From the NCBI GenBank assembly GCA_032155105.1, contig JALDXK010000002.1, positions 1-33,115 on the forward strand: a stretch of DNA of 33,115 bases, given 5' to 3'. This DNA is from Acidobacteriota bacterium (lineage in GTDB: Bacteria > Acidobacteriota > Vicinamibacteria > Vicinamibacterales > UBA2999). This document shows, one piece after another, positions 30,484-33,115 of the stretch. A model generated the notes under the pieces. The model was given only the letters and a program-made list of their open reading frames with translations. It was not told the origin of the DNA and did not search any database. Position numbers and translations under genes: made by a program. How positions within the stretch are numbered: the first letter of the stretch is position 1; each line of letters starts with the position of its first letter.

Positions 30484-30740
30484 AGCCGGCGCGAATCGAA
30501 CTGCACATCGAGGAACTGGTGCTGCACGGCTTCGCGCCCGGCGACCGTCACGCGATTGGTGACGCCGTCGAACGCGAGCTGGCGCGATTGTTTACCGAAC
30601 ACGGTCTCGCATCGTCGTCACTCGCGAGCGGCGAGCGTGCGCACGTGAACGCCGGAGAGTTTCAGGTGGCCCCGGAATCCAAGGCGCCGGCGGTGGGCGC
30701 ACAGGTGGCGACGGCAGTGCACGGAGGGCTGACACGATGA
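30480..30740 (+). CDS. Small (86 aa) hypothetical protein wedged between the ATPase and the DUF4157 gene
   Basis: GTG start overlapping the ATPase stop (GTGA), and its stop overlaps the next ATG (ATGA). No recognisable domain. Confidence 0.5.
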   Translation: MKPARIELHIEELVLHGFAPGDRHAIGDAVERELARLFTEHGLASSSLASGERAHVNAGEFQVAPESKAPAVGAQVATAVHGGLTR

Positions 30741-33115
30741 GCGTGCGAGCCCTGGCATCGGCCAAACCCGCGGCAGTCACATCGCCCTCGATCACCGCCA
30801 GGCCCACGGGCCTCGTGCAACGGAAGTGTGCCTGCGGTGGTGCTGCTGGTGTGACAGGCGAGTGTGAAGGGTGTAGAACGAAGCGCTTGAGCCTGCAGAC
30901 GAAACTCAAGGTCAACGAGTCTGGTGATGTCTACGAACAGGAAGCCGATCGGATTGCCGATCAGGTGTTGGCGGCGCCAGCTCACTCCACAGTGAGCATC
31001 GCTCCACTGCGCATCCAACGCTTGTCAGGGCACTCGGGCGGCGAACTGACTGCGGCGCCCGCAAGCGTGGACTATGCGCTCGCCAGTCCCGGCACACCGT
31101 TGGATCCGGCGTTACGGATCGAGATGGAGCAGCGTTTCGGTCACGACTTCTCCAAGGTGCGCGTGCATAGCGATACGGCCGCGGCGCAATCAGCGCGAGA
31201 CGTCAACGCGCATGCCTACACGGTGGGACACAGCGTGGTGTTCGATGCGACCCGGTTTGCCCCGGCGACCTCCGATGGTCGTCGCTTGCTGGCCCATGAG
31301 CTGACTCACGTCGTGCAGCAATCCAATCCGGCCGGCGCGTCCTCGTCATCATTACAGCGACAGCCGACTCCCGCACCGGACGCCGCGCGCGACGCTGCCG
31401 TGGCGGAAGGGCGCGCCGCCGTTCGAACCGGCGAGTACCAATCCGACGCGGAAGATGCCTTGAAACTCGATCCGCGCAAACGCCAAAGCAAAGACTACGC
31501 ATGGAAGCACGGTGTGAAGGACAGGGACCGAATGCGGAGCAAGCGAGACCTGCCTCCCAAACACAAATATGAGGTCGCGGTCAAGGTTCGGTTCTTCAGA
31601 GGTGAGGCCAAGCTCGCTTACATACAGACTATCAGTCCGGCTCTGGCGGAGTTCGCCGAGGACGGGCCCGAGATTTTAGACGAAACCAAAGGCGCCGGCG
31701 AACTCGAGGGAGTAGAGGCCCCACCAAGGATCGGCCAAGGCACGGGCCAAAGCACCGGCCAAGGTGCCGGTCAAAGTACGGGCCAAGGGGCGCCGCAATT
31801 GAAATGCGACCTCGGCAAGCGGGAATACGTCCTGGAATACGAAGGTGAGCCGTGGCTCACCAGATGCATGGATATCACGACAGATCCAGAAGCCAATAAT
31901 ATCGCCGATTTCAATATCGTCGATGCTGACGGTTTTGCCGTGAAAGGAACGACCTGGGAAAACGTCGAGTACGACAGCTTCAAAGTCATGCGGGTGAAAT
32001 ATAAGGACGGTCGTTTCGAGTACTTCATGCTGAATGAGATCGGCGACTTTCGCCTGAGCTACAAGAACCCGCGCGGGCTTCGTAACATCACATATGTGAA
32101 GCGACCATCAACAGGCTTGATCTATCCAGTCGCCCAGGGTGACCTGCACTTCAGTGAAACGTTTACGCCCAATATTCTCCGTGCCAAGAATGGCCTGAAG
32201 CATCAAGTTAAGGAAATCCAGGAACTGTATGAATTGCTGCAGGTCGGCGGAACCTTCGCCGGCATCTTGGGTTCATATTCATCCGTCTCCGGACCGTCCG
32301 GAGTTAGAAGTGCATTCACGGGTTTCAGGAGCGTCAAAAAAATCTCGACCAAGACACCACAACCCCCACCGACGAGAACAGTTGACGTCGTTCCCAAGAA
32401 GAAGGTGTCGCCATCCGACATCACGACGGAGTCGACCAAGCCTCCCAAGAAAGCTGGTAAGCACGAGAGCCAGGAAACGGGCACGACCGTCATCAGTCGA
32501 ACCGACGACCCGGGCGGTGGCAAAGGTGACAAGAAGGCCCCAGCGAAAAAGATCGCCAAGCCACAAGAGACGAGAGGGAAGGCCGGGGGAAAGCAGGACG
32601 ACGAGTCGGAAGACCCGAAGGGCGGCAAGGCACCGGCAGCCGACAAGAAGCCAGACCCAGCACCCACGACGGCTGTGAAGACAGATATCTCGAAAATGTC
32701 TGAGGCCGACAAGGCGACGCGCGTCGGGGAAATCAGGCAAGAGCGGGCCAAAAACGATGCGGAGATGAAAGAGCTGCAAGTAAAGATCGACGCGGCGAAC
32801 AAGAGATCGAGAGACGCGAGCGCGAAAGCGGTTGATGCCAAAGGAGACGCCAAGACGGAGTTGGTTGACAGCGCGAGGCGGAACAAGGCGTCCGCGGAGA
32901 GGTGGAAGGCCGATCAAGACGCGGTGCGACTTCGCAACAGGAAACTGCGGGATGAGGAAACCCGTCTACTGCCTCCCAACGTGGCTCCGAAATCGTGGCC
33001 AGAGGCCGAAGCATCGCTGCGTACAGAGTTTGGCGGCCAAAAGCAGTCACTGTCGACGGCGACGAAGGATGGAGATCTAGGCCGACGTGATATCGACTGC
33101 TTCACTCCCCACGAC
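30737..33115 (+). CDS. DUF4157 (HExxH metallopeptidase-like) domain-headed multidomain protein, putative eCIS effector/toxin; 3'-truncated by the window edge (at least 793 codons)
   Basis: Not in the supplied ORF track because no stop lies inside the window. I translated 30737-33115 codon by codon and found no in-frame stop. Cys-rich leader QRKCACGG..GECEGC. DUF4157 core: LDPALRIEMEQRFGHDFSKVRVHSDTAAAQSARDVNAHAYTVGHSVVFD...GRRLLAHELTHVVQQ (HELTH at 31295-31309). After it come a GQxT repeat linker, an unrecognised AT-richer domain, a Lys/Pro-rich tract, a coiled coil and the start of another domain. Confidence 0.85.
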   Translation, partial: MSVRALASAKPAAVTSPSITARPTGLVQRKCACGGAAGVTGECEGCRTKRLSLQTKLKVNESGDVYEQEADRIADQVLAAPAHSTVSIAPLRIQRLSGHSGGELTAAPASVDYALASPGTPLDPALRIEMEQRFGHDFSKVRVHSDTAAAQSARDVNAHAYTVGHSVVFDATRFAPATSDGRRLLAHELTHVVQQSNPAGASSSSLQRQPTPAPDAARDAAVAEGRAAVRTGEYQSDAEDALKLDPRKRQSKDYAWKHGVKDRDRMRSKRDLPPKHKYEVAVKVRFFRGEAKLAYIQTISPALAEFAEDGPEILDETKGAGELEGVEAPPRIGQGTGQSTGQGAGQSTGQGAPQLKCDLGKREYVLEYEGEPWLTRCMDITTDPEANNIADFNIVDADGFAVKGTTWENVEYDSFKVMRVKYKDGRFEYFMLNEIGDFRLSYKNPRGLRNITYVKRPSTGLIYPVAQGDLHFSETFTPNILRAKNGLKHQVKEIQELYELLQVGGTFAGILGSYSSVSGPSGVRSAFTGFRSVKKISTKTPQPPPTRTVDVVPKKKVSPSDITTESTKPPKKAGKHESQETGTTVISRTDDPGGGKGDKKAPAKKIAKPQETRGKAGGKQDDESEDPKGGKAPAADKKPDPAPTTAVKTDISKMSEADKATRVGEIRQERAKNDAEMKELQVKIDAANKRSRDASAKAVDAKGDAKTELVDSARRNKASAERWKADQDAVRLRNRKLRDEETRLLPPNVAPKSWPEAEASLRTEFGGQKQSLSTATKDGDLGRRDIDCFTPHD
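31733..31792 (+). repeat. Five in-frame 12-nt tandem repeats (ggccaaggcacg-like) encoding GQGT-GQST-GQGA-GQST-GQGA
   Basis: Read directly: ggccaaggcacg / ggccaaagcacc / ggccaaggtgcc / ggtcaaagtacg / ggccaaggggcg. Confidence 0.85.

Follow-up and report, generated by a model that had tools for sequence, protein, structure and literature searches.

Proteins in which a constant DUF4157 head precedes a variable C-terminal domain have been described from several loci for extracellular contractile injection systems (eCIS), and here we compare them with a DUF4157-headed effector gene at the right-hand end of a 33,115-nucleotide stretch of an Acidobacteriota bacterium genome (GenBank assembly GCA_032155105.1, contig JALDXK010000002.1, positions 1 to 33,115 of the forward strand; hereafter the window). 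The class was defined with the PVC-metallopeptidase toxins (Zhang 2012, PMC3482391), in which a constant zincin head with the signature HExxHxxQ and a downstream Glu ligand is joined to toxin tails exchanged by recombination, in loci that also encode sheath, gp19, gp25 and CDC48-like AAA proteins. In the same work the metallopeptidase was proposed to cleave its own protein. The class was later expanded by the eCIS-associated toxins (EATs), which combine an N-terminal DUF4157, a long linker and a C-terminal toxin (Geller 2021, PMC8213781; Danov 2024, PMC11297309). Some EATs are nucleases, EAT9 being a restriction endonuclease (PMC8213781, PMC11297309), and 983 of 1130 predicted DUF4157 effectors have no other annotated domain (Danov 2024, PMC11297309). 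Cgo1 and Cgo2 of AlgoCIS fill the lumen of the tube and require their N-terminal domain for loading, while Cgo1 does not need the HExxH motif for its toxicity (Xu 2022, PMC8894135; preprint 10.64898/2026.05.27.728243). A PD-(D/E)xK DNase domain, BaCT, has also been reported fused to DUF4157 (Jana 2019/2020, PMC7073777).

Against this background, we find that the window effector is probably a DUF4157-headed polymorphic toxin, most likely fired by its eCIS into other cells. The original prediction had recognized no family in the roughly 590 residues after DUF4157; profile searches indeed match nothing there, and the region now resolves into two modules (A and B), a hydrophobic helix, a linker, a coiled coil and the start of a C-terminal domain (CTD). 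The novelty suggested at that stage was overestimated: the architecture was defined in Zhang 2012 (PMC3482391), and Geller 2021 (PMC8213781) and Danov 2024 (PMC11297309) later widened it. Among the proteins of this class, recognized since 2012 and with a head that Pfam now calls the “eCIS core domain”, the window effector is an ordinary one, although the families of its CTD and of the probable immunity partner are undescribed; the new items are the family of modules A and B, a cassette made of the CTD and a downstream partner, and a Cys4 motif in the head.

Like the PVC-metallopeptidase toxins, the window effector joins a constant HExxHxxQ head to exchangeable tails in a contractile injection locus, and Ntox1 and Ntox5, both listed as PVC-associated (PMC3482391), are among the Pfam hits of its family. 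It departs from them in that modules A and B and the CTD match no Pfam-A model searched, and in that a downstream partner is dedicated to its class of CTD, a feature that many PVC-metallopeptidase toxins lack. With Cgo1 and Cgo2 it shares the order of N-terminal region, DUF4157 and variable C-terminal domain, a gene position inside the eCIS cluster and, as seen at the related locus L094, an N-terminal region common to the effectors of one system. Compared by description, however, its N-terminus is not simply disordered, as it carries the invariant Cys4 motif, and its body and warhead differ. The resemblance to the EATs extends from domain order and an environmental (soil) producer to a toxin domain that is unannotated, as in most predicted DUF4157 EATs; unlike theirs, its gene lies mid-operon, between ATPase and baseplate genes, and not at the 3′ end. 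The BaCT/PoNe toxins and their BaCTic/PoNi immunity proteins (PMC7073777) offer a parallel in the small C-terminal domain with (D/E)xK, the predicted alpha/beta core and the immunity gene directly downstream, but no sequence similarity to them is established, the window-type CTD always follows a Lys-rich linker and a coiled coil, and its nuclease activity is predicted. Finally, a sharp junction (here FR(R/S)), cassettes of toxin and immunity genes and arrays of orphan immunity genes recall the CdiA-CT and Rhs toxins, whose demarcation motifs differ and which are delivered by type V or type VI secretion systems rather than by a contractile tail-like particle.

An effector gene with a DUF4157 head, cut by the window end

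The effector frame occupies positions 30737–33115 on the plus strand. Translation yields 793 stop-free codons and leaves the frame open at the window end, in agreement with the original prediction of an unlisted open reading frame (ORF) of at least 793 codons. The ORF is absent from the ORF list because the lister omits ORFs running off the source, which was also the explanation given at the time. No early stop follows DUF4157 in this frame, and the homologues likewise continue. The start codon of the effector (ATG, position 30737) and the TGA that ends the upstream 86-amino acid (aa) ORF overlap as ATGA; about 10 nt 5′ of this start there is a GGAGGG. The gene had been called the largest of the locus, which holds within the eCIS part; a 1643-aa alpha-2-macroglobulin ORF at 9915–14846 on the minus strand is larger.

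Homologues support the gene call. P0001 is 63% identical to the effector over aa 202–793 and P0002 is 47% identical; both retain every part of the architecture and run on for about 70 residues past the end of the window, which argues that the frame is a true gene continuing for some 70 codons past that point. In a collection of 5.8 billion proteins, no more than seven clusters resemble aa 202–793, and in P0003–P0007 the likeness is limited to aa ~205–530, with complete divergence after it. A pattern scan of GTDB genomes (species representatives) returned no relative of aa 202–793, and the family of modules A and B is rare, occurring in 4 of 185,579 GTDB species representatives. Beyond aa ~200 the effector has no match in Pfam, NCBIfam, PHROGs or PADLOC; for the middle region, scans of these libraries at E ≤ 10 gave chance-level similarities only, and searches of PDB sequences, with single sequences as well as profiles, returned nothing. 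Two of the recorded homologous starts appear to be placed too far inside their genes: the start given for P0001 (LGLQTK...) is probably too far downstream, as tblastn aligns window aa 17–200 from position 9896 of L001 (region ~9896–10001), and the L004 toxin ORF likewise extends upstream of its called start, to 832 aa from 665 aa.

The head consists of an N-terminal region and the DUF4157 domain (eCIS_core, PVC-metallopeptidase). The latter spans aa 121–197 (31097–31327, plus strand) and matches PF13699 with E = 1.4e-30 and 105.7 bits against a cut-off of 22, over profile positions 1–77 of 79. It contains the zinc-binding signature HExxHxxQ as HELTHVVQ at aa 187–194 (31295–31318), in which H187, E188, H191 and Q194 are invariant in an alignment of effectors from four loci (A8). 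Given the downstream Glu ligand described for the PVC-metallopeptidase (PMC3482391), E224, which is invariant among the effector homologues (alignment A1), is a candidate third zinc ligand. With the profile match, the intact HExxHxxQ and the contractile injection locus, the protein has the sequence and gene-context features by which PF13699 members are recognized. The N-terminal ~200 residues had been described as a DUF4157 module with HExxH; the domain and motif are there, although the Pfam model accounts for 77 residues and the conserved head is longer, at about 170 (aa ~29–197).

Upstream of DUF4157, residues 1–120 (30737–31096) form a presumed loading signal that includes a YEQEADRxA motif. 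This region is conserved in the effectors of four loci and is common to the window effector and three tandem effectors of L094. Within it lies a Cys4 motif, CxC-x9-CxxC, at aa 31–46 (30827–30874). The surrounding pattern, RKCACG..G.C..C, spans aa 29–46, and R29, K30, C31, A32, C33, G34, G41, C43 and C46 are all invariant in A8. A zinc knuckle at this site would, if true, be a new detail, since published eCIS loading sequences are described as disordered.

Constant heads and unrelated tails

The original prediction of a polymorphic-toxin architecture is borne out by the relatives of the effector. The tails behind module B, 64 in number, sort into 28 classes with no relationship to one another, and similarity between paralogues stops just past the FR(R/S) junction, which is often followed by LPGRPLP. 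Pfam recognizes toxin domains in members of the family, namely CdiA_C (6), GH-E HNH nuclease (2), EndoU (1), Ntox5 (1) and Ntox1 (1); for P0005 the CdiA_C match was located in the tail itself, scoring 29 bits where the cut-off is 26.6. The L094 locus provides the same contrast within a single operon: three tandem DUF4157 effectors (9311–15589) have near-identical N-terminal ~200 residues but end, respectively, in modules A and B with a tail, in a long glycine zipper with an HExxH domain, and in an HxE...PCxxC deaminase-like domain. Between these three genes there are no evident immunity ORFs. A constant head, unrelated tails and a sharp junction are the defining behavior of polymorphic toxins. 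That the C-terminal domains are toxins holds for the sister members, and by extension the CTD of the window effector would be one as well.

The C-terminal region shows no similarity to fiber, baseplate, tape-measure or other structural proteins in Pfam, PHROGs, the PDB or BFVD. Homology of the whole C-terminus to a structural protein, the finding that the original prediction had named as contrary to its view, is therefore not seen in these databases.

A mobile cassette of linker, coiled coil, CTD and partner

Past the junction, the window effector continues with a Lys/Pro/Thr-rich linker at aa 534–652 (32336–32692, plus strand; K 19%, P 13%, T 13%; isoelectric point (pI) 9.7), a coiled-coil helical hairpin at aa 653–742 (32693–32962) and the first ~50 residues of the CTD at aa 743–793 (32963–33115). 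The linker carries a conserved motif, TV(I/V)SRTD(D/E)DP..KG.KK..KK...GGK, that also precedes unrelated tails in P0015 and P0023 (by BLAST) and in P0038 (by eye). The P0015 and P0023 tails (GHKPKYE...) resemble GH-E HNH nucleases and that of P0038 resembles EndoU, in both cases by eye only; Pfam found GH-E and EndoU in the scanned set as a whole. The occurrence of the motif ahead of nuclease-like tails lends weak, associative support to a nucleic-acid target. The Lys-rich stretch itself might be where the protein is cleaved, or an element that binds nucleic acid. The coiled coil, which AlphaFold2 (AF2) models in the P0001 equivalent as two long helices with a predicted local distance difference test (pLDDT) score of 90–95, precedes the window-type CTD in every case.

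In L001 and L002 a 179-aa ORF begins about 30 bp after the toxin gene. Its two copies are 80% identical, so that the partner is more conserved between these loci than the toxins themselves. The partner family comprises 69 clusters, all unannotated, as gathered from a metagenome scan and a protein search, and is acidic (pI 4.7 for the partner; family median 5.2). It has no match to Pfam or to any known Imm family, with only chance-level similarities in scans of Pfam, NCBIfam, PHROGs and PADLOC at E ≤ 10, and a GTDB scan returned nothing.

The same acidic ~175-aa family lies directly 3′ of the CTD in six independent loci (L001, L002, L009, L095, L097 and L102). Conversely, wherever DNA upstream of a partner beside a DUF4157 gene could be read, the gene ends in the same linker, coiled coil and CTD (the L009 fragment, L095/96, L097/98 and L102/103). 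This C-terminal unit is carried by three different DUF4157 bodies, those of P0001/P0002, L095 and L097, and the toxins of L095 and L097 have other middle regions in place of modules A and B. It is found in addition on the L102 DUF4157 toxin and on an 832-aa protein of L102. The partner gene follows 16–55 bp after the toxins of P0001/P0002, L095, L097 and L102 (the DUF4157 toxin), and also stands after the L009 CTD fragment. Since the same CTD and partner appear on different bodies, the mobile unit is best described as linker, coiled coil, CTD and partner together.

Partner homologues also occur by themselves. In L099 the homologue is an orphan, and in L100/101 it lies, with no CTD nearby, in an array of small unannotated ORFs behind a 1786-aa Rhs/YD-repeat toxin (L100 2382–7864); this array looks like an orphan-immunity island. 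Orphan copies in arrays are typical of immunity genes. The likeliest role of the partner is that of immunity protein to the CTD, with a gene predicted to start just beyond base 33115. A small immunity-like ORF downstream was proposed by the original prediction as something to look for: it is present in the six related loci with the same CTD, and the window stops before the corresponding position.

Further genes were noted around these cassettes. The 832-aa protein of L102 (5543–8041) has no recorded Pfam hit, lies directly after the first toxin–partner pair and has no recognizable partner gene behind it. In L009 a 315-aa ORF (766–1713) directly follows the partner gene and combines a coiled coil with a C-terminal “...VMVDIKG...” (D-x-K); it may be another small nuclease-like toxin. 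P0003 is encoded at L003 10001–11955 among unrelated metabolic genes, with no eCIS gene within 10 kb, and a 129-aa ORF that overlaps the 3′ end of this toxin gene is not shared by L004.

Motifs of the C-terminal domain

In relatives the CTD is ~115 aa long, of which the window covers about 50, comprising a helix with the motif AE..LR.E and an RDIDC segment (D785/D787), as seen in alignments A5 and A7 and in the L102 variant. Six sequences in A7 and the L102 variants share a fixed order of motifs, W..AE..LR.E, G.R[DE][IV]D[CS], E[AS]K[FH]G, EI.KD and EWHFY.NP, with alternating hydrophobic stretches around them that agree with an alpha-beta-beta-beta-alpha-beta pattern. Within it, E ... [DE]xD ... 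ExK can be read with 10–12 residues between the D and the ExK; the E and the D are inside the window and the E-x-K is just past its end. The order E ... D ... ExK is the signature listed for Tox-REase and restriction-endonuclease-fold toxins (Zhang 2012, PMC3482391), and the CTDs of the close relatives are basic (pI 8.8–9.1). The motifs point to a Mg-dependent PD-(D/E)xK-type nuclease, a call to which we give slightly less than an even chance: it combines the probable reading of the whole protein as an eCIS toxin with a somewhat better than even assignment of the fold.

Structure prediction of the regions after the head, proposed in the original prediction, yielded AF2 models of the coiled coil with the CTD and of the middle region, confident for the coiled coil and better for module A than for the rest of the middle region, and Foldseek found no significant structural relative for either model. 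The look-alikes of the coiled coil in Foldseek, VIPP1 and ESCRT-III (E at least 0.17), reflect coiled-coil similarity and were dismissed as functionally meaningless. A word-index search with the 120-aa CTD returned nothing and missed even P0001, the index being too thinly populated for queries of this length. PoNi proteins carry DUF1910/1911. We rejected identity of the cassette with PoNe/PoNi, because the partner has no Pfam hit at all, as opposed to the DUF1910/1911 of PoNi.

Weighing the alternatives

Several observations weigh against a delivered nuclease toxin with a dedicated immunity protein. The nuclease call draws on a short motif pattern. For the CTD, Pfam, NCBIfam, PHROGs, PADLOC and the sequences of the PDB give no match, and using a six-sequence profile did not change this; its best NCBIfam match is at chance level (E = 0.082, 12 bits, in scans at E ≤ 10). 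AF2 assigns pLDDT values below 50 to the putative catalytic strands of the CTD in the model of coiled coil plus CTD, built with three sequences, and Foldseek searches with this model matched the coiled coil only, and not significantly. Since neither profile nor structural similarity ties it to a known member, we have not filed the CTD in the PD-(D/E)xK superfamily. The CTD of L097, moreover, is not basic (pI 5.95). Both the E-x-K and the downstream gene are outside the window, so that the pairing is extrapolated from relatives 47–63% identical to the effector. L004 and L005, paralogues with other tails, have no convincing downstream ORF, and L003 (P0003) and L004 (P0007), which share a tail class, have no downstream gene in common, which indicates that not every member of the family is paired with an immunity gene. 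That the effector is loaded into this particular machine is assumed from where its gene lies, and in AlgoCIS DUF4157 itself is dispensable for loading (Xu 2022, PMC8894135). A first rival keeps the eCIS polymorphic toxin and makes the CTD another small toxin, such as an RNase of a different fold or a non-nuclease enzyme. It gains from the lack of a profile or structural match to any restriction-endonuclease family, from the AF2 model, which places a helix rather than a strand over the E-x-K at low confidence, and from sister tails that include the RNase-type CdiA_C, EndoU and Ntox1. The canonical order E ... [DE]xD ... ExK, its 10–12 residue spacing and the fitting hydrophobic pattern speak for a PD-(D/E)xK domain instead, and families of that kind, BaCT among them, are known to be too divergent for profiles. 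We consider a toxin of another type a possible but doubtful alternative.

Other explanations place the activity, or the role of the protein, elsewhere. Were module B and its Gly-rich helix toxic in themselves, by membrane insertion or pore formation, the tails would be accessory. About ten representatives do end ~30 residues after module B, which shows that it can be a terminal domain, and the helix has GxxxG-type spacing, with an explicit glycine zipper after DUF4157 in an L094 sister. Yet the tails include recognized toxin domains, the partner follows the tail and not module B, L095 and L097 keep CTD and partner while lacking module B, and the module B model is of modest quality with no pore-former match, all of which makes this reading quite unlikely. 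The effector might instead be a structural or assembly factor (a lumen plug, a length determinant or a maturation protease) that is never delivered as a toxin, considering that DUF4157 is a “core” eCIS domain in 13 phyla (Geller 2021, PMC8213781), that the gene is mid-operon rather than at the 3′ end and that HExxH is intact. This is very improbable in view of the missing similarity to structural families in Pfam, PHROGs, the PDB and BFVD, the 28 tail classes and the tandem paralogues with deaminase or peptidase ends, which are unlike structural proteins, the orphan copy far from any eCIS at L003 and a conserved CTD-specific partner of the kind typical of toxin–immunity pairs. As for that partner, it could be a chaperone or loading adaptor of the CTD, with eukaryotic targets for the toxin: for many eCIS toxins there is no immunity gene and the presumed targets are distant organisms (PMC8213781, PMC3482391), chaperone-type partners for eCIS effectors have been speculated upon (Danov 2024, PMC11297309), and the partner matches no known Imm family. 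An adaptor of this kind seems unlikely, as the partner stays behind the CTD on three different toxin bodies, appears as an orphan in a small-ORF array after an unrelated Rhs toxin, which is classic for immunity genes, and is acidic, as nuclease inhibitors often are. We thus favor a delivered polymorphic toxin with an immunity partner.

Proposed mode of action

In the sequence of events that we propose for such a delivered toxin, the N-terminal ~120 residues, with the Cys4 and YEQEADR motifs, would act as the loading signal by analogy with Cgo1 and Cgo2 of AlgoCIS, and the upstream Pvc15-like AAA ATPase would recognize this signal and thread the protein into the inner tube's lumen. The cargo would be expelled on contraction, as in the AlgoCIS work. 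The DUF4157 zincin, with its intact HExxHxxQ, may serve as an accessory or processing module, possibly one that releases the cargo. Modules A and B and the Gly-rich helix constitute a reusable body, as their sharing among effectors demonstrates, and may mediate membrane interaction or entry. The Lys-rich linker, the coiled coil and the ~115-aa CTD would be the exchangeable warhead, in keeping with the exchange observed between bodies. Judging from motifs only, the CTD is then predicted to act as a Mg-dependent PD-(D/E)xK-type nuclease, which the acidic ~175-aa immunity protein encoded downstream, paired with it in six loci, would neutralize in the producer. An immunity partner implies that at least some of the targets are bacteria. 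More speculatively, the linker, coiled coil, CTD and partner might constitute an undescribed toxin–immunity family specialized for eCIS, with the CTD as a new and very divergent PD-(D/E)xK nuclease and with module B and its helix as a new module that aids entry into the cytoplasm in the manner of the CdiA-CT entry domains; we regard this combination as doubtful.

The locus adds a testable example to the DUF4157-headed eCIS effectors with unannotated toxic domains, together with annotation that can be reused elsewhere: modules A and B, for which Pfam has no entry, the mobile cassette of warhead and partner, and the Cys4 motif. The immunity-like partner suggests that a soil Acidobacterium aims its eCIS at bacteria, which is a minority and poorly documented use of these systems. 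The gain in annotation is incremental and leaves the current picture of eCIS unchanged, with a possible nuclease–inhibitor pair for eCIS engineering.

The reusable body of the effector

A profile of aa 205–530 retrieved 156 representative clusters from 1.84 billion proteins searched, and dissection of these representatives with hidden Markov models reveals that modules A and B combine independently. DUF4157 with module A is the most frequent arrangement (42 representatives), followed by module B only (39), DUF4157 with both modules (31), module A only (19) and DUF4157 with module B (11). Ten representatives show other combinations, either modules A and B without DUF4157 (5) or a duplicated DUF4157 or module A (5), and two matched none of the three profiles. 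Module B is thus present without module A in 50 representatives. The Pfam-A search set, in which the toxin-domain models that hit sister members were present, gives no match to either module.

Module A (aa ~229–316; 31421–31684, plus strand) is helical and conserved in P0001–P0007, and AF2 models it as four helices with pLDDT 77–90. Module B (aa 357–495; 31805–32221) is beta-rich according to the alignment of homologues and AF2, with the invariant motifs CD...RCMD and TTWxNxEY. Between the two, Tandem Repeats Finder detects a repeat at 31724–31788, with a period of 12 and 5.5 copies or a period of 24 and 2.4 copies, that encodes GQ[GS]T units (aa ~330–351). The repeat is missing from all seven homologues and is an insertion unique to the window copy. 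The original prediction had taken it for the linker between head and cargo; the repeat is real but is inserted between modules A and B, and the actual head-to-cargo linker is the Lys/Pro-rich stretch at aa 534–652. Module B is followed by a hydrophobic, Gly-rich helix and the FR(R/S) junction (aa 496–533; 32222–32335). The Gly-rich segment, LLQVGGTFAGILGSY, is conserved among homologues, has GxxxG-type spacing and is helical in the AF2 model, at low confidence. For this middle region as a whole, AF2 was run with an 8-sequence alignment and reached an overall pLDDT of 60. Foldseek searches of the model against the PDB and BFVD found no relative; the best matches (E = 0.17 and 0.04, respectively), with TM-scores of about 0.1, were rejected.

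Operon and genomic context

As originally predicted, the DUF4157 gene is embedded in an eCIS locus behind the ATPase gene, with genes for sheath, tube, Pvc16 cap and AAA ATPase directly upstream. A Pfam scan places it after six eCIS genes, all on the plus strand. The sheath gene (23493–25124; Phage_sheath_1 and Phage_sheath_1C) is followed by an inner-tube gene of the gp19 family (25172–25693; PF06841, E = 8.7e-45) and a T4_baseplate or baseplate-hub-like gene (25711–26442; PF12322, E = 3e-16; phrog_150 “baseplate hub”, 3.6e-9). A 247-aa protein encoded at 26403–27146 matches no family in Pfam, PHROGs or the other profile libraries scanned and has positional equivalents in L001 and L094. Next are the gene for a Pvc16/Afp16-type cap, or tail terminator (27143–28498; PF14065 Pvc16_N, E = 4.5e-52), and that for a Pvc15/Afp15-type AAA ATPase (28495–30483; PF00004 AAA and PF22977 WHD). 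The latter is the presumed cargo loader, a role that comes from the eCIS literature.

The small conserved 86-aa ORF at 30480–30740 is translationally coupled to the effector by the ATGA overlap. Its homologues in L002 (52% identity) and L094 (33%) are placed alike, L001 has a positional equivalent, and all of these sit between the AAA ATPase gene and the first DUF4157 effector gene. The 86-aa protein has only chance-level matches in Pfam, NCBIfam, PHROGs and PADLOC (E ≤ 10). It could be an effector chaperone or adaptor.

L001, a Joint Genome Institute (JGI) soil contig, and L094, from a Methylococcaceae metagenome-assembled genome (MAG), are both syntenic with the eCIS operon of the window. 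In both of these loci a second tube gene, a spike gene (Phage_base_V), gp25 and baseplate J come after one to three DUF4157 genes, which indicates that the effector genes are a variable cassette set midway in operons of this type. The window sheath is 71–81% identical to the sheaths of L001 and L094, and such identity, reaching into a Methylococcaceae MAG, points to horizontal spread.

The left two thirds of the window contain housekeeping genes, including a DnaE fragment and genes for penicillin-binding/SpoIID-like, alpha-2-macroglobulin, molybdopterin oxidoreductase, ferric-reductase-like and thioredoxin-like proteins. The window DnaE is up to 87% identical to sequences of soil and freshwater MAGs, most of them labeled Acidobacteriota, in keeping with an Acidobacteriota origin of the window. 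Bacterial alpha-2-macroglobulins usually pair with PBP1C. Here, a 767-aa protein with penicillin-binding transpeptidase and SpoIID domains, encoded at 6872–9175 on the plus strand, is convergent to the 1643-aa alpha-2-macroglobulin at 9915–14846 on the minus strand.

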